A DNA stretch of 64,000 nucleotides from Porphyromonas sp. (GTDB taxonomy: Bacteria > Bacteroidota > Bacteroidia > Bacteroidales > Porphyromonadaceae). Position numbers and translations under genes: made by a program. Below, piece after piece: positions 2,350 to 58,016 of this stretch; positions within the stretch are counted from its first letter, which is position 1; every line of letters begins with the position of its first letter. The DNA is taken from assembly GCF_030529325.1 (NCBI RefSeq), contig NZ_JAUMXC010000001.1, positions 52,342 through 116,341 of the forward strand. Reading direction: 5' to 3'. A model generated the notes under the pieces. The model ran no database searches. It had not been told where the DNA came from and saw only the letters and a program-made list of their open reading frames with translations.

Positions 2350-3567
2350 ATGAAACGGGTTTACATCATTTTAGCCATACTCTTATCCATCCAGACAGGA
2401 TATGCCCAGATTAAGGAAATGCATCCTACTCAGACCGAACGATTGGATCTGAGCGCTAAGGGAGAAAAAGCTTTTGAAGCAAAGGCCAAAGCCATACAAA
2501 AGATCTACGAAAAACTGGAGAAAAAGGGTGGTTCGGAAGCCCTAACCAAAAAGGAAAGAGAACTCCTTGACAGCTACGACGACACAATAGACAGTTACTG
2601 GTCCATCATCGGGAGCGGATGTAGCTGGTACTGTGGAGGAGGTACCAAGAGCGTCACGGCCTCAAGCCACCTCAAGGCTCAAGGCTCAATAAACTATCTA
2701 CCCGACAACGCTCATGACCTTAACTATAAGAACGCATGGGCAGAAGGAGTCCCGGGCTACGGGATCGGAGAATACCTGTTGTACACCTTCGATGCAACAG
2801 CTCCACGGATCAATCAGATAATTGTAGTCAATGGTTATGTCAAAAGTAAGACCGCTTGGGAAAACAACTCCAGAGTCAAAAAACTGAAAGTATACATCAA
2901 CAATAAACCCTATGCCATACTCAACCTCAAAGACATAAGAGGATCTCAGACATTCGATGTCGAGCCCATAGGCAACACTCCGAGAGAGAACGAGGAGGAG
3001 ATGCAAAAGAAGGGAGACTGGACAATGAAGTTTGAGATATTGGAAGTATATAAGGGCGCAAAGTATGATGACGTCATCATATCGGAGATCTATTTCGATG
3101 GGTTGGATGTACACTGCCTTGCCAAGGGGACTCCGGTCCTTATGGCGGATATGTCTGAGAAAAACATCGAAGACTTGGAGATCGGCGACCTTGTTGCGTA
3201 TATAGATGGCAAGGAGTTCAAAACCGCACGTATAGAAAAACTTGCAAAAGCAACACATCACGGACTCGTCACCTACAGATTTGAGAGTGGTAGAAGCATA
3301 ACAACAACACAGGATCATCCATTCAGAATAGAAACAAAAGGTTGGTCATCCCTAAGCCCCGAAAAATCGGCTAGGTATAGAGGATTTGAAAAAGTAAGAA
3401 AGGTCGAAATAGGAGACGAATTCGCGACAGCATCAGGCAGAGACCGATTGATTGCAATCGAGCACCTGAACGAGACTCAAGAGACCTACACTATTTCGAA
3501 AATGAACAATGGAGATCACTTCATCGCCAATGGGCTGATCGTAGGGATCGAAGAACTCAACGAATAA
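2350..3567 (+). CDS. Secreted protein: signal peptide + coiled-coil/Lys-rich region + F5/8 type C (discoidin) domain + C-terminal Hint (Hedgehog/intein-like, BIL-type) domain
   Basis: MKRVYIILAILLSIQTGYAQ signal; VTASSHL...AWAEG...ISEIYFDG discoidin-like motifs; Hint block A C-LAKGTPVLMADMS (Cys codon 3115-3117) and block B TTTQDHPF (His codon 3316-3318). The protein ends right after the Hint domain. Confidence 0.6.
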   Translation: MKRVYIILAILLSIQTGYAQIKEMHPTQTERLDLSAKGEKAFEAKAKAIQKIYEKLEKKGGSEALTKKERELLDSYDDTIDSYWSIIGSGCSWYCGGGTKSVTASSHLKAQGSINYLPDNAHDLNYKNAWAEGVPGYGIGEYLLYTFDATAPRINQIIVVNGYVKSKTAWENNSRVKKLKVYINNKPYAILNLKDIRGSQTFDVEPIGNTPRENEEEMQKKGDWTMKFEILEVYKGAKYDDVIISEIYFDGLDVHCLAKGTPVLMADMSEKNIEDLEIGDLVAYIDGKEFKTARIEKLAKATHHGLVTYRFESGRSITTTQDHPFRIETKGWSSLSPEKSARYRGFEKVRKVEIGDEFATASGRDRLIAIEHLNETQETYTISKMNNGDHFIANGLIVGIEELNE

Positions 3568-3630: not shown

Positions 3631-3741
3631 ATAAACAAGATAATATCAGACAATTAAAATCCAAATCTCCACCTCATCGCTCTCCACAATCCGAACCTTC
3701 CCACAAAGGGTCAAAGAAAAGATAAAGAACCTCCCAAATCA

Positions 3742-3803
3742 ATGTGTCTAACTTGATGAATGAAGTTGTCTAACTTGATGCATCAAGTTAGACAACCTTT
3801 TTT
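3742..3803 (+). repeat. Copy 1 of a ~60 bp structured repeat family (GTCTAACTTGA direct units + 14 bp perfect hairpin GTTGTCTAACTTGA-tgca-TCAAGTTAGACAAC + T6)
   Basis: Near-identical copies at 10582, 22312, 49024 (inverted) and 57736. The apparent 61 aa ORF 3760-3945 is an artefact of the repeat sequence. Confidence 0.8.
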
Positions 3804-4044
3804 CGACAGGCTGAAACCTTTTTTTACAACGATGAACAAGGGTGTGAAGGAGGCTTATCAGGAAAAGGGTTATGTTTTCTTGATTTATCAGCAGGAGATC
3901 CCCCAAAATGACAAGATTTTGCACAGTCTACACATCAAAATCTAGGAAAGACAATCGGAAAGTCAGAAGCCCCTGCAAAACATTCAAAAAAACATGCTAA
4001 ATAATTTGGAATAGCCAAAAGTAACATCGAACTTTGTACAGAAA

Positions 4045-5403
4045 ATGACCGCATTAGCACCCTTAGCAGAAAGAATGCGCCCACAGACTCTTGACTCCTA
4101 TGTAGGGCAGGAGCACTTGGTAGCGCCGGGAGCACCACTCTATGAGATGCTCTCCGGGAGTATTTTGCGCTCATTTATCCTATGGGGTCCTCCCGGAGTA
4201 GGCAAAACAACGCTGGCTCACATCATATCCAAAACCCTTGGTCTCCCCTTTTACACGCTTAGTGCCGTATCATCCGGAGTGAAAGATGTAAGAGATGTCA
4301 TCAGGGTTGCAGAGGATAGCAAAGGGGGCTTATTTTCGGGTGGTACACCGATCTTGTTTATAGATGAAATCCATCGATTCAACAAATCCCAACAAGACTC
4401 CCTTCTTCATGCTGTAGAGAGAGGGGTTGTGACACTCGTGGGAGCAACCACAGAAAATCCTTCGTTTGAGATCATCCGTCCGCTCTTGTCCAGGTGTCGC
4501 GTATTTGTCCTGAAATCTCTGGACGCCAAGGCAATGAGACAGTTGTTGGACAAAACTATCGAGACAGACACGCTGATGCAGGCGTTTGACTTTGAGATAG
4601 TAGAAACGGATGCGTTGTTTGCTGCAGCAGCAGGCGATGCCCGAAAGTTGCTCAACATCATAGAACTGCTCACCCTCACGCCTGAAGCTCAAAAAACGAA
4701 GAAGGTAGTCATCTCCAACGAAAATGTAGCAAAACATCTCCAACAAAATCCGGCTGTCTATGACAAAGGCGGTGAGATGCACTATGACATCATCTCGGCG
4801 TTTATAAAATCTGTGAGAGGGAGTCATCCCGACGCTGCGCTGTATTGGTTGGCTCGGATGATAGAGGGAGGAGAAGATCCGAAGTTTATTGCGAGACGTT
4901 TGGTGATCTTGGCAAGTGAAGATATAGGATTGGCTAATCCCAATGCTCTCCTCATAGCTCAGGCCGCATTTGATGCAATAGAAAAAATCGGCTGGCCTGA
5001 AGGTCGCATTTCTCTCTCTGAAGCAACAATATACCTGGCAACAAGCCCCAAAAGCAACAGTGCTTATGAAGCCATAGACAAGGCCTTGGCTTACGTACGT
5101 GCCAACCCGGCAGCACCTGTCCCCATGCATCTGCGAAATGCTCCGACAGAGCTGATGTCAGAATTGGGCTATGGAGCCGGATATATCTATCCCCATCTGT
5201 ACAAAGGTAACTATGCCCCTCAACAATATCTCCCCGAAGAAGTAAAGGGGATAACGTTTTGGGAGCCGGCAGATAATATACAAGAGACTCGTTTGATGGA
5301 GTTTGTGAATAGCAGGAGACAGATGTATGGAGAGAAAACCGACATTTTGTCCCCAAGATCTCAACAAATGCACAGGGAGTCTGACCCAAATATCGAGAAC
5401 TAA
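4045..5403 (+). CDS. rarA: Replication-associated recombination protein A (AAA+ ATPase RarA/MgsA)
   Basis: N-terminus [19 protein letters not shown] and Walker [10 protein letters not shown], like E. coli RarA. Confidence 0.9.
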
Positions 5404-10421: not shown

Positions 10422-10581
10422 TCCTTACGACATAATAAAAATCGGAAACAGGGTGTGCCATTAAATTGGTCACCCTATTTTCTTTTTCCTCTCTACCGCA
10501 AGCTGCCTACCTGACAAATATATCATCCAGACAACTCATACGACAAAAGACAACAAAGAGGGATATAAACCTGTACAATCG

Positions 10582-10645
10582 ATGTGCCTACCTTGATGAA
10601 TTAAGTTGTCTAACTTGATTCACGAGGTTAGACAACCTTTTTAAT
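10582..10645 (+). repeat. Copy 2 of the structured repeat family (degenerate distal arm: ...GTTGTCTAACTTGA-ttcacgag-GTTAGACAAC + T5)
   Basis: Same architecture as copy 1 but with a C in the first unit (GTGCCTACCTTGA), shared with copy 3. Confidence 0.75.
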
Positions 10646-10836
10646 ACCCATCCGCAGGGAAGTTCATTAAAGGCAAATAGAAAGATATAAAGTCTTGGCT
10701 AAGTATAACATTCCCAAAGAGAAAAACTGCTCTGTCATATCTGCCTTGCTTCAAATCTCTACTCCATACGTAAAAAGTCAGGTTGCCTGAACATGCGACA
10801 ACCTGACTTTTACCATTCGTCTCAGAATAATTACAT

Positions 10837-21817: not shown

Positions 21818-22088
21818 GTTAGTTTTTTAATGTATTAAACAGTTAATAAAATAGATAGTATACAGTTTTGATTGATCGATCATACTTGCCAATCAGCAAA
21901 CACAAATGCCCGACACAGTCAAGAGTATAAATCTCCGGACTGAAAGAAATCGCACAAAAAGCTCCGCTCTAAAACTCTAATAAGAATTGAAAACCTCCCA
22001 ATCCTCCCCCAAGTTTCATGTGGTTTTTATGTATCAACCGCAAAGGTATAAAAAACAAAATTAAACTTAACACACACCTCAAACATTA

Positions 22089-22232
22089 CAGGGCAACCGC
22101 ATCAAAAATCTCGATAAAATACAAGTTGCTGATTTTCAAATGATTGCATTTTAGGATTATATTCAAAGATAAAGAATGCACTCAAAACCATGATTGATAA
22201 TCAGGCACTTACATTTTGATGCGATTGCCCTG
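22089..22232. mobile_element. 144 bp MITE with 19 bp terminal inverted repeats (CAGGGCAACCGCATCAAAA / rc CAGGGCAATCGCATCAAAA) and perfect 9 bp target-site duplication CAAACATTA (22080-22088 and 22233-22241)
   Basis: IRs and TSD read directly from the sequence; the same terminus CAGGGCAACCGCATCAA flanks the transposase remnant at 40495. Confidence 0.75.
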
Positions 22233-22311
22233 CAAACATTACCCCACCTTGAGTCAGAGAGTTTTTTTCTGAATAGGGTATCAAGAATGAGATGTACATC
22301 TCTCGAAATCG

Positions 22312-22373
22312 ATATGCCTACCTTGAGAAATGAAGTTGTCTAACTTGACGCATCAAGTTAGACAACCTTTTTC
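22312..22373 (+). repeat. Copy 3 of the structured repeat family (hairpin GTTGTCTAACTTGA-cgca-TCAAGTTAGACAAC + T5)
   Basis: Near-identical to copies 1/2/4/5; sits 193 bp upstream of the aminotransferase ATG. Confidence 0.8.
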
Positions 22374-22507
22374 AAGGCCTCAAAAGACATTGAAGCTCAA
22401 GGGGGTCGAAACATTTTGCCATTGAGCTATTACCCCACCATTAGTGAAATTTTCGGGTCTATCCGCCCAATACTTATAACAATATATGCATGACTGTTAT
22501 TTTTACG

Positions 22508-40467: not shown

Positions 40468-40494
40468 AAGGTGTAAAGGCAACCCACATCCACC

Positions 40495-40721
40495 AGGGCA
40501 ACCGCATCAAATCTTTAGTATCTTTTTGAGATAGTCCATATTCAGAGCGGCTTTGAACAGCCTCTTCCGTAAGGATAGCTTGTCTTTATGTTGCGAGACA
40601 ATGGCTAAGGCGAACTTTCTTAGCGTGTTTAGATTAGTCGCTGAATAATCCTTACGAGCACGGCAAGCATTTTCTCTAAAGGTTACATCCAAATGCCAGT
40701 GCAGGGCAGCCGCATCAAGCA
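40495..40721 (-). pseudogene. DDE_Tnp_1 (IS4/IS5-superfamily) transposase C-terminal remnant with the terminal IR
   Basis: Minus-strand reading ...AALHWHLDVTFRENACRARKDYSATNLNTLRKFALAI... is the classic transposase C-terminal HWxLDVxFxED...R...A.NLA.LR..AL motif. It is followed by the stop and the terminal repeat CAGGGCAACCGCATCAA (40495-40511), and a second near-copy CAGGGCAGCCGCATCAAG (40704-40721) lies at the upstream boundary where an in-frame TAG ends the homology. Confidence 0.65.
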
Positions 40722-40782
40722 GACGCTACGCCTTACACCTCATCCATTAGTAGAAAGTATTATCTTCTCAACTTGAAAAAAG

Positions 40783-41634
40783 CTACTCAGAGTAGATAGA
40801 CAATGTTTCCAAAGATATATTACCTATAAGAGCCGCTACCTGAGAGAATGACCCGCCTTTGGTAGACAATATGTGCTTGGTCTGAGAGAGGGCCAGTAGT
40901 TCACCGAAAGCATTGATACAACCTTTTGGAGTATTGAGCAGAGATACAGTGTGTGGCATAAAAATACGTCCGGCAAATACCGTAGACAGGCGCTCCCGCT
41001 CCTCAGGCATATCTGAAGCTATAAAGAAAGAGACGGAAGGGTCATCTTCTATCATACCCTGCATACGCTTAATAAATAACTCGATGGGGTTATGATGGCA
41101 CACATCATTTTTGCGGCAGCTATCCAAGTGTACACCAACGACGTTATCACTCCAATCTGAAATATTAGATTGAAAAGCGTTTTTGACCTCAACGGATGCC
41201 TTCATAAGATCAAACATATTACGATGATCACCCAAAGAGGTCTCTGAAGAAATCAGGATATGCTCACGCCCACGGAATAACGAAAGCAACTGCTCCTGCC
41301 CATTCTCACATATACTGCGAATATCCTTCGGAGAAAAACACCGGTCATATCGAAAGAATAAAAAAGGATAAGACAAAAAACCATTTCCCGTCTGAGGCAG
41401 ATCATTGAAGAACCAATCTTTGGCAGTAGCCTCTCGAATAAAAATACCGGCCTCCTCAAGCATTGGATCAAGAGTAAAAAGCCTATACGACGGACAATAT
41501 AGGCGTTCATCCGAAAACCAAATTATGTCCATCCGCGTCTCAGCCTCCAAAGCAAGAGAAATCGCAGAAGCAATGACTTTAAGCCTGTCTGTAAGGCCTC
41601 CTTTCGGTACAAGTGTGAGTTTATCCTTTCTCAT
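40783..41634 (-). CDS. Cytoplasmic protein, possible GT11 (alpha-1,2-fucosyltransferase)-like glycosyltransferase
   Basis: N-terminal PKGGLTDRLKVIASAISLA resembles the GT11 motif I G-LGNQMFQYA; C-terminal STKGGSFSQVAALIGN resembles motif SNSTFSWWAA. Start taken at ATG 41634 because the ORF-track start at 41664 is a TTG. Confidence 0.3.
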   Translation of the reverse strand: MRKDKLTLVPKGGLTDRLKVIASAISLALEAETRMDIIWFSDERLYCPSYRLFTLDPMLEEAGIFIREATAKDWFFNDLPQTGNGFLSYPFLFFRYDRCFSPKDIRSICENGQEQLLSLFRGREHILISSETSLGDHRNMFDLMKASVEVKNAFQSNISDWSDNVVGVHLDSCRKNDVCHHNPIELFIKRMQGMIEDDPSVSFFIASDMPEERERLSTVFAGRIFMPHTVSLLNTPKGCINAFGELLALSQTKHILSTKGGSFSQVAALIGNISLETLSIYSE

Positions 41635-44179: not shown

Positions 44180-44389
44180 AGTGCTCTTTAATTTTGAAAT
44201 TAGACGTCGCTCCCAATCAAAAGTGAGCAAAACGTCTCTGTTAGGCAAATATAGACATAATCTCCAAAATCCGCTCATACGGTATTTATTAGCCAATGAT
44301 AAGAGAACAGCGGTCAGAGATTGTTTTCTGACCGCTGTTCTCTTATCTTAAATAGTTGAGTTTACTTCGGTTGTAACCTCTGTAAGCGA

Positions 44390-48810: not shown

Positions 48811-49023
48811 TACAATTTTACTTAATGAGCGGTAAAGATAATAATCTTTGCAGGTACCGAACATCATTTGACAGGCAAAAAAAACTCTCCCCGGTGATGA
48901 GAGGCCCTATATTTTCAGGGACACATATGCTATAATATTTAGTCGGAGCATTGTAACTCCCCAAAATGCCCCACATTGAAGCTTACCGTAAACCACGTAT
49001 CCTCAAAGACTTGAAAGGGTATA

Positions 49024-49090
49024 AAAAAGGTTGTCTAACTTGACGTATCAAGTTAGACAACTTCATTCATCAAGTTAGACACCTGAATTT
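49024..49090 (-). repeat. Copy 4 of the structured repeat family, inverted orientation (rc: ...GTGTCTAACTTGATGAATGAAGTTGTCTAACTTGA-tacg-TCAAGTTAGACAAC + T6)
   Basis: Reverse-complement alignment to copies 1/3/5 is near-perfect; oriented toward ispB, about 212 bp upstream of its ATG. Confidence 0.8.
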
Positions 49091-49250
49091 CGACAGATGT
49101 ACGTCTTTTTTCTCAATATTTAATTTAGGATAGCCTCATAAGGAAGGACTACAAGTCAAATCGAGCCGATATCAAACAGCCCCATACTCCCATCACCTTG
49201 GACACCCGAGTATTTGCACTCTGCAGTTAAGATATATCAGTCAATTATAC

Positions 49251-56188: not shown

Positions 56189-56611
56189 TTGTGGCAGTGT
56201 GGTGTACTGAAAAAAGTTGACAGTAGCGGAGGAGAAAAAATCAAGAACCCACTAACCAAACATTTCAGTATTCCGGAGCGCCTTCACATTCTCGAAGAAT
56301 ATCTCGGCTCGGACCTCAGCAAGTATGCCATCGAGAAGAAATATGGCTTGAATCGGGGGAGTATTTACTTTTGGCTTCGTAAATTCGGGTTATCAGACAA
56401 GCTTAAAACAGAAGTCATGAAAACTCCGACAGATGATAATGCGCTCAGCATGAGCGAACAAAAGGAATTAGCACGTCTTCGCAAGGAGATCCGTCAGCTC
56501 AGAGCAAAACTCAAACACGAGGAGCCGGGACACAAAGCCTACAAGTTGCTCGTTGAATTGGCAGAAGAAACCCACGGCATCGAGATAAGAAAAAACTCCG
56601 AAGCCAAGTAG
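56189..56611 (+). CDS. IS3 OrfA (HTH transposase N-terminal part); true start uncertain
   Basis: HTH region LHILEEYLGSDLSKYAIEKKYGLNRGSIYFWLRKFG and leucine-zipper-like C-terminus; the ORF-track start is a TTG lying partly outside IR-L. Confidence 0.65.
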   Translation: MWQCGVLKKVDSSGGEKIKNPLTKHFSIPERLHILEEYLGSDLSKYAIEKKYGLNRGSIYFWLRKFGLSDKLKTEVMKTPTDDNALSMSEQKELARLRKEIRQLRAKLKHEEPGHKAYKLLVELAEETHGIEIRKNSEAK

Positions 56612-57713
56612 TTCAGCGTTTGTCAGAGGACAATCGGCCTCATCATCCTGTCACTCTTCTCTGCGAACTGCCCGGCTTCAGCCGTCAGGCTTACTATAAA
56701 CGCAACCTCAGGACTCCAAGTCCCTACGAATCAGAGATCTTGGAGACAAGCATCATCCTCTACTTCAGGCATTTGCGAAGGAGAGAACACCTTCCCAAAG
56801 CCGGCTTCAGGGAGTTGTTCCTGCTGTGCAAAGAATACTTCGGGGAAAAGTTCCTCATCGGCAGAGATCGCTTCTGTGCCCTGATGAGAGCCAATGAGTT
56901 AATACTTCGTAAGCGACGTTATCGCCCCCATACAACCAACTCCGACCATCACTTCCACAAATACGAAGATCTGCTCAATACCGAATCGAAATATGAGTCC
57001 AAGAAGCCGGGAGATCTCCTTGTGGCTGACATCACTTACATCTCCTATCGTGGCGGTTTCGCCTGTTTATCCCTCCTTACAGATGTATACAGCCGTTGTA
57101 TCGTGGGGCACTGTCTGCACCCGACACTTGAAGTGGAGGGCTGTATCTCGGCCCTCGAACAAGCATTTGACTTCTATAAAAGACATAAGACAGACATCAA
57201 AGAAATGATCCGTCACAGCGACCGGGGAGTACAGTACGCTTCTACCCGGTACACGAAACTTCTCACCGATCGGGGGGGGCCGCATCAGCATGACCCGTAC
57301 GGGAGACCCGCTTCATAACGCCCCGGCCGAAAGGATAAACAACACCCTGAAAAACTCGTGGTATATCTCCTCCGAGGACCAAACACTCGAGGAAGCAAAG
57401 CAAGCAGTGGCACGAGCCGTCCGGATGTACAACGAAGCTCGCCCACATCAGTCTATCGGAGGACGGACACCCATGCAACTATTGCAGAAAGAAGTTCAAA
57501 ATCTCCTTGTCCCCACCAAAGGACAAGATTGGACAATCTCTCCTAAGCTCTATGCAATGATGAATCCCGAACAAAGAGCCAAATTTGCATCGTGTCAACG
57601 TTTATGGCCCTAACCAAAGGACGCCGTAAACCCAAGACTATTATAAAGATCTATTGTGTAAACTAAGTATGAAACTTGCCTCCACTACTGTCAACTTTTT
57701 TCAGTACACCACA
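56198..57713 (+). mobile_element. IS3-family insertion sequence (1.5 kb) with 35 bp terminal inverted repeats TGTGGTGTACTGAAAAAAGTTGACAGTAG(C/T)GGAGG
   Basis: IR-L 56198-56232 and IR-R 57679-57713 (1 mismatch); orfA/orfB organisation with -1 slippery heptamer A_AAA_AAC at 56590-56596. Confidence 0.8.
56620..57613 (+). pseudogene. IS3 OrfB (DDE integrase core) disrupted by a +1 frameshift in a G8 homopolymer at 57272-57279
   Basis: Two ORF-track pieces, 56620-57318 and 57290-57613; an intact reading ...KLLTDRG-RISMTRTGDPLHNAPAERINNTLK is restored if the G tract is 7 instead of 8. Confidence 0.75.
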
Positions 57714-57735
57714 GGGTAAGGGACTTTCTAAATCA

Positions 57736-57793
57736 AGGTGTCTAACTTGATGAATTAAGTTGTCTAACTTGAGAGATCAAGTTAGACAACTTG
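57736..57793 (+). repeat. Copy 5 of the structured repeat family (hairpin GTTGTCTAACTTGA-gaga-TCAAGTTAGACAAC, no T-run)
   Basis: Lies 22 bp after IS3 IR-R; 224 bp upstream of the rocD ATG. Confidence 0.8.
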
Positions 57794-58016
57794 TTCTACC
57801 CCCTCCGACAACATCCTCTACACCGACAGAATAAGGACAAAACACATAAAAACTCCCCATACCCCGAAAACACGGATCTACGATTGACAATTAGACTTTA
57901 GAACGGCAATAAAACAGCCCGGATTATTGTTTTATTAGATGATTTTATATACCTTGTAAAGGTTTATTCAAAACCACGAAGATATTTAACATCACATTAA
58001 AACAAAATACTAAACT

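Follow-up and report, generated by a model that had tools for sequence, protein, structure and literature searches.

An inert ISAs1-family remnant with a second terminal repeat at its break point in Porphyromonas

The 226-bp insert at positions 40494-40719 of the window (the whole 64-kb stretch of DNA from an uncultured Porphyromonas analyzed here) is located between the 3' ends of the convergent genes of a TPR protein (plus strand) and a GT-like protein (minus strand). It contains the last 208 of the 1,139 bp of an ISAs1-family insertion sequence (IS), namely its 3' end at 40494-40701, followed at the break point by a second, complete terminal repeat. The remnant is ordinary, inert IS debris; its only peculiarities are the second copy of the end at the break point and the clustering of such break points. 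We consider it likely that an ISAs1 element came to lie in a hairpin, acquired a junction of the transposition type, and then suffered loss of sequence. For biology at large, this carries little weight; it corrects the family of the remnant to ISAs1, and positions 40507-40692 should be annotated as a transposase pseudogene fragment and not as a gene. The insert and its flanks comprise the following features:

40469-40480, plus strand: left arm AGGTGTAAAGGC of an inverted repeat spanning the insert, pairing with 40730-40740 at 11 of 12 positions
40485-40493, no strand assigned: CACATCCAC, the 9 bp adjoining the repeat of the remnant and the expected target-duplication site, as duplications of the family are 9 bp long
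40494-40511, plus strand: right-end terminal inverted repeat (IRR) of the IS remnant, CAGGGCAACCGCATCAAA, 18 bp, found without change at the ends of the intact relatives (1,139 bp)
40507-40701, minus strand: transposase codons 299-362 and TGA stop codon, detected by tblastn, profile, and DNA homology
40702-40719, plus strand: second terminal repeat CAGGGCAGCCGCATCAAG, solitary and oriented as a direct repeat of the first, its tip abutting codon 299
40730-40740, plus strand: right arm GCCTTACACCT of the flanking inverted repeat, pairing with 40469-40480

Identity and extent of the remnant

The minus-strand translation of 40507-40761 reads NTFY-stop-WMRCKA-stop-RLLDAAALHWHLDVTFRENACRARKDYSATNLNTLRKFALAIVSQHKDKLSLRKRLFKAALNMDYLKKILKI-stop. 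In agreement with the original prediction, which had regarded this region as the C-terminal remnant of a DDE_Tnp_1-type transposase, the peptide was found exactly as given, and the relatives carry DDE_Tnp_1. Residues 299-362 of the transposase P0156 matched 40701-40510 with 94% identity in tblastn, and the segment LHW...KI was 95% identical to residues 298-362 of the 362-residue P0155, so the homology is real but extends over these 65 residues and not over the 75 residues that had been assigned to the fragment. At the DNA level, homology to IS copies ends at 40698-40701, and the in-frame TAG that had been noted beyond this end is located at 40726-40728. The terminal repeat had been correctly recognized next to the stop codon, but the TGA (40507-40509) lies within the repeat and not just before it, and the boundaries of these real features had been placed one or two bases off (40495 instead of 40494, 40704 instead of 40702).

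The fragment matched the NCBIfam model NF033564 (ISAs1-family transposase) with E=4e-10 at model positions 278-314 of 314, and its 39 bits are below the whole-protein cut-off of 70 bits only because the sequence is fragmentary. This was the sole NCBIfam match of the fragment; a Pfam search with its 72 aa gave zero matches. The relatives that are 92-95% identical over the residues of the remnant are full-length ISAs1 transposases. Full-length relatives (362-367 aa) scored 326-341 bits on NF033564, showed a sub-threshold IS1380 match in NCBIfam in addition to the ISAs1 match, and contained the Pfam domains DDE_Tnp_1_assoc and DDE_Tnp_1. The name 'ISAs1 family transposase' is also given to database homologues of P. 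gulae and P. gingivalis. Judged by these profile matches, the remnant belongs to the ISAs1 family. The label 'IS4/IS5-type' of the original prediction therefore has to be replaced, as ISAs1 is the only NCBIfam family of the fragment. Its label at the Pfam level was correct, and the full-length relatives share the broad DDE_Tnp_1 domain with the IS4 and IS5 families.

The ends of ISAs1 elements, whose type element is from Aeromonas salmonicida, begin with 5'-CAGGG according to the ISfinder description, and the target-site duplications of the family are about 8-10 bp long; we know of no biochemical study of the transposition mechanism of these elements. The repeat CAGGGCAACCGCATCAAA fits the CAGGG-type start and matches both ends of intact relatives, and the remnant shares with the family a transposase C-terminus with the LHWHLDVTFRED motif. 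Its ISAs1 relatives have a single ORF and 9-bp target duplications, with the closest sampled copies found in Porphyromonas gulae, P. circumdentaria, and Porphyromonas spp. COT-239/COT-290. Unlike these relatives, the remnant retains only the right-end repeat and codons 299-362 of the 362-aa transposase, which corresponds to 18% of the element, and the best DNA identity to any sampled IS copy is 89%.

The remnant cannot encode a transposase. Codons 1-298, which a functional ISAs1 element would possess, are missing, and mobilization is impossible, as the two repeats are direct rather than inverted. In DDE_Tnp_1 transposases, the catalytic glutamate is part of a W-x-I-E motif; by analogy, it is presumably the one in GIEN here, four codons upstream of the break, and on this reading all three catalytic residues would be absent. 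In addition, the conserved D of FRED is changed to N, and the only mechanical ORF comprises 61 aa with a TTG start (40507-40692). In comparison to the copies L089 and L004, 18 and 15 codon differences, respectively, were synonymous and four in each case were non-synonymous. As the differences are mostly synonymous, the divergence would mostly stem from functional lineages, with little decay after the truncation. No other homology to the transposase beyond noise was detected by tblastn in the 64-kb window, and no intact IS copy from the host species was found among the sampled loci.

The NCBI contig L001 of a metagenome-assembled genome (MAG; GCA_030528425.1, annotated as Porphyromonas sp.) was identical over 40480-40800, and the Logan contig L088 (run SRR24915846) was identical over 40507-40782 and thereby crossed the junction, indicating that the structure is no assembly artefact. 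Two short Logan contigs with the TPR gene (L002 and L003) both break inside the IS end, at 40522. Such breaks imply that the IS end is multi-copy in those samples and suggest that further IS copies are present there.

Intact relatives and terminal repeats

An intact copy (L089, 2464-3602) comprises 1,139 bp with perfect 18-bp repeats CAGGGCAACCGCATCAAA, a 9-bp duplication CGGAAATAA, and a 362-aa ORF, and the L091 element is likewise 1,139 bp long. The same repeat of 17-18 bp bounds elements across a broad Bacteroidota clade, some with transposases of only about 50% identity, and perfect 9-bp duplications were present in 8 of 16 repeat-bounded elements of this clade. The variant CAGGGCAACCGCATCAAA was the commonest (104 of about 118 copies sampled). 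The 17-mer CAGGGCAACCGCATCAA had four matches in the window as opposed to 0.15 expected, a number reached by none of 100 shuffles:

22089-22105, plus strand: exact copy
22216-22232, minus strand: copy with one mismatch
40494-40510, plus strand: exact copy
40702-40718, plus strand: copy with one mismatch

While the relatives, and also the miniature inverted-repeat element (MITE) described below, have 9-bp duplications, the putative duplication of the remnant is found on one flank only, and a second copy of this 9-mer is absent throughout the window.

The internal-deletion derivatives L080 (440 bp), L072 (913 bp), and L016 are also non-autonomous ISAs1-type leftovers that keep the 3' end. L080 and L072 still have their two ends as inverted repeats, and their mobilization would remain possible, in contrast to the remnant with its direct repeats, and L016, unlike the remnant, is cut by the start of its own contig. 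The near-intact IS L011 of Porphyromonas sp. COT-239 has tandem duplications of 27 bp and 23 bp in the transposase gene (3340-3395 and 4236-4285), of which the second shifts the frame.

The second repeat and its junction

The original prediction had also pointed to a second near-copy of the terminus where the transposase homology ends. This copy is real, and it is a complete element end (40702-40719). The two repeats are direct, identical at 16 of 17 positions, and 208 bp apart. In our alignment A2, in which a slash marks the break, the junction reads ...GCCCTG/CACTGGCATTTGG in the window and ...CGACTC/CATTGGCATTTGG in intact copies; the longer rows are ...GTAGCGTCTG-CTTGATGCGGCTGCCCTG/CACTGGCATTTGGATG... 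for the window and ...GGGGAATTGAGAATCGACTC/CATTGGCATTTGGATG... for intact copies, and intact genes have ...GAGAATCGACTC/CATTGGCAT... at this position. The IS homology starts directly after the tip of the complete repeat, and what looks like a leucine codon at the junction is a CTG that belongs to the repeat. In A2, three relatives that are intact or nearly so all read GGGGAATTGAGAATCGACTC at the break, where none of them has anything similar to a terminus, and the proposed truncation by recombination between terminus-like sequences is therefore not in agreement with the intact genes.

A complete end that is joined tip-first to interior DNA is the junction type of transposase strand transfer. 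Among the 158 repeat occurrences, this was the only locus with IS interior outside the repeat tip, leaving aside the case of L006 (775-891). We rejected L006 as a second example, because an IS end, a single 'n', and an identical 97-nt copy indicate a scaffolding artefact, probably two overlapping contigs that were joined. The solo repeat differs from the remnant's own repeat at two positions, and its G8/G18 variant occurred solely at this locus among the about 118 copies sampled. No partner repeat was found in the window at up to five mismatches, no IS or MITE similarity was detected for 40720-40782 among the sampled loci, and when 40715-40790 of the right flank was compared with the window and all loci by BLAST, only the same locus was returned. 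A metagenome scan with the junction GCCCTGCAYTGGCAYYTGGATGT gave zero matches, so the connection of the repeat to codon 299 is no repeated unit in that collection.

Clustering of break points

Four 5' break points of ISAs1 elements were found within about 10 bp, at IS position about 932-941:

Window, about 40699-40701: tip of a same-family repeat
L016, about 55-62: microhomology deletion ending 3-4 bp from the break of the window
P. gingivalis L086 (CP024591), about 2998-3001 and about 4670-4680: one junction with an IS5-family element end and one with a different sequence

The causes of the breaks thus differ from case to case. In L086, the IS5-family end GAGACCTTTGCACGG, which is the same end as that of the IS at L086 5056, lies directly beside an ISAs1 remnant whose break is within 10 bp of that in the window, and a second ISAs1 remnant is cut at the same place beside a different sequence, GGAACTCTGCAC. 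These IS-in-IS fragments resemble the window in the position of the ISAs1 break, but in the window the interrupted element and the abutting end are of one family, and the latter is represented by its 18-bp repeat alone. As L080 and L072 break elsewhere in the gene, the cluster is not general to the wider clade. It is unlikely that the window holds the fossil of a self-destructive integration of the element's own end, or that position about 932-941 is a true insertion hot spot; if either were true, end fragments of 200 bp would recur in Porphyromonas as the outcome of a specific process and not of random decay. In L086, two truncated ISAs1 ends (2998-3200 and 4560-4680) flank a 1.36-kb segment in inverted orientation, with the repeat tips facing the segment, which contains a DUF3078 gene and an apparent tRNA gene.

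Flanks of the insert and neighboring genes

The complementarity score of the two flanks was reached by 9 of 5000 shuffles, and the GT-like protein is full length in comparison to about 150 homologues. Together, these two aspects suggest that both flanks are native and that the IS may have landed in the loop of a pre-existing intergenic hairpin, in which case the remnant need not mark the border of an island. The predicted empty site is AAGGTGTAAAGGCAACC-CACATCCAC-(G)CAGACGCTACGCCTTACACC. A native right flank implies that CAGACGCTAC is present in the empty site, and its absence would mean a larger deletion or rearrangement. A scan of the intergenic region for promoters and terminators combined with folding revealed only the pairing of the flanks.

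The original prediction had placed the border of an accessory island here. In support of this, synteny with L084, a relative with 55% identity, is kept from BacA to the TPR gene and then diverges, but the complementary flanks and the full-length GT-like gene suggest insertion into an existing hairpin, and we regard the border as doubtful. Given the large distance of the L084 species, the next three genes cannot be called an island, and with 42.6% in comparison to 44.4% in the window, they are inconspicuous in G+C content. Identity to the closest TPR homologues, which belong to different species, is 61% and 55%. An empty site was not found at these two loci, of which one has other downstream genes and the other is on a contig that ends 59 nt past the gene.

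Possible origins of the truncation

In the explanation that we regard as likely overall, a first element would have inserted into the hairpin loop that separates the convergent genes of the TPR and GT-like proteins. Later, a complete terminal repeat would have been joined tip first to about position 932 in the transposase gene, and a deletion or end resection would then have eliminated all sequence on the far side of the 17-18 bp repeat and, from the first copy, the 931 bp at its 5' end. As the site takes foreign insertions elsewhere, we tentatively favor a second family member (IS or MITE) that inserted into the first copy as the source of the repeat. We know of no single event that would leave behind precisely one 18-bp repeat, and the assumed second step left no independent trace. 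Intramolecular transposition is established for IS10/IS50, and an integration of this sort of the element into itself would be an alternative source, in which its left end would be cleaved and, with inverted polarity, attack the transposase gene of the same copy, before the free end is resected as far as the repeat occupied by the transposase and joined to the flank. Such a course requires one event and no second element, and it would explain the orientation of the repeat, the exact junction of tip and interior, the retention of 17-18 bp, the lost duplication copy on that side, and the conservation of native flanks. Nevertheless, we consider it rather unlikely, since the solo repeat differs at two positions not only from the element's own repeat but also from 104 of the about 118 copies, since end joining after resection is rare in bacteria, and since other elements have inserted at the same site in P. 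gingivalis, which makes an incoming element equally plausible. Both nested insertion and self-integration fit the facts of the junction, and the evidence does not separate them. As neither an empty site nor an intact copy from the host species was found and the nearest TPR homologue is only 61% identical, we can only infer the order of events and the source of the repeat.

The recombination of the original prediction would require that the intact gene holds a terminus-like sequence and that exchange between it and the true terminus removed the 5' part. The two repeats are indeed direct, with 16 of 17 identical positions and a distance of 208 bp, and repeats of this kind can in general give rise to deletions or to the integration of circles. 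However, the GGGGAATTGAGAATCGACTC of the three relatives is in no way terminus-like, the six codons of the second repeat (LDAAAL) do not align with GIENRL, and homologous recombination would have very little sequence to act on in a mismatched 18-bp repeat, which makes this course very improbable. It is even harder to believe that the 3' fragment was retained for a function, either as the 61-aa C-terminal peptide encoded by the TTG-start ORF at 40507-40692 or as a repeat that titrates transposase. The 5' break points within 10 bp in the window, L016, and the two P. gingivalis remnants could be taken as a sign of such retention, but the sequences adjoining the break differ in each case, the 61-aa product has no gene on record in an exact look-up, the scan found no promoter-like site facing the ORF and no terminator-like site, and the conserved D of FRED is replaced by N. 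The least probable of these explanations is a chimeric join at the repeat during assembly, for which one could argue that the genome is a MAG and that the break of L002 and L003 at 40522 indicates a multi-copy end. Against this, the junction is identical in the window, L001, and L088, with L088 running uninterrupted from the GT-like gene through 40702-40719 to 40507, and the shared 17-bp repeat with its mismatch is shorter than assembly k-mers.

A MITE with ends of the ISAs1 type

The repeat of the remnant also bounds a short element in a distant part of the window:

22089-22232, no strand assigned: MITE of 144 bp with 18/19-bp terminal repeats of the IS family, flanked by the duplication CAAACATTA at 22080-22088 and 22233-22241

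One end agrees with the IS repeat at all 18 positions and the other at 17 of 18. The element shares only these terminal 18-20 bp with the IS, its interior is unrelated, and the window contains one copy. In metagenome contigs, we found 21 elements with two such repeats 95-125 bp apart, six of which are 145 bp long and identical to the MITE of the window at 134-136 of about 145 positions (92-94%). These six copies mostly have 9-bp duplications, and the flanks in their contigs are unrelated to the window. From its sequence features, 22089-22232 qualifies as a genuine MITE of a family with ends and a duplication length of the ISAs1 type. The link between the MITE and its parent family that had been drawn in the original prediction holds, with the terminal repeat common to both and the 9-bp duplication matching in length. 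Conservation of the repeat throughout the clade means that the parent family can be identified from it, but not the remnant itself as the source of the MITE. In view of the same repeat and the same 9-bp duplication, the transposases of the ISAs1 clade presumably move the MITE in trans.

In P. gingivalis, MITE239 and MITE700 have ISPg3 ends and MITEPgRS has ISPg1 ends (Naito et al., 2008, PMC2575886). These MITEs follow the same principle, in that a short non-coding element with the repeats of a resident IS is moved in trans. The MITE of 144/145 bp in the window differs in having ISAs1-type ends and is not among the P. gingivalis MITEs listed in that study, and ISAs1 is absent from a review on prokaryotic MITEs published in 2024. 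The results thus tie a 145-bp MITE family of several oral or animal-associated Bacteroidota to ISAs1-type transposases, a pairing that is missing from both sources.

Copies of the MITE at L093, L094, L095, L098, L105, and L108 show that more than one species carries the family; two of them, those of L093 and L108, are positioned within an IS5-family terminus (GAGACCTTTGCA). There are also more diverged subfamilies, among them a second one of 145 bp with an identity of about 76%, which occurs at L092, L096, L100, L101, L107, L109, L110, and L112. Members of this 145-bp subfamily lack a target duplication and are flanked by the complementary GC-rich sequences GGCTCCCC and GGGGAGCC, as if they were located in the center of a hairpin or had longer terminal repeats.

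Further elements in the window

An IS3-family IS of about 1.5 kb is located at 56198-57713, with 35-bp inverted repeats that are 97% complementary, a 140-aa orfA, and an orfB that is split into pieces of 232 aa and 107 aa. Five copies of another repeat, about 70-110 nt long, are found at 3723-3832, 10563-10672, 22293-22402, 49010-49119, and 57717-57826, one of them 60 nt from the MITE and one abutting the IS3 element. The core of this repeat, GTCTAACTTGA..AAGTTGTCTAACTTGATGCATCAAGTTAGACAACCTTTTT, forms a hairpin followed by a T run and has no Rfam match; an Rfam search of the window found only a tRNA. At 44298-44347, between the gene of a serine-hydrolase-like protein and exbD, a perfect 21-nt inverted repeat with an 8-nt loop is probably a terminator.
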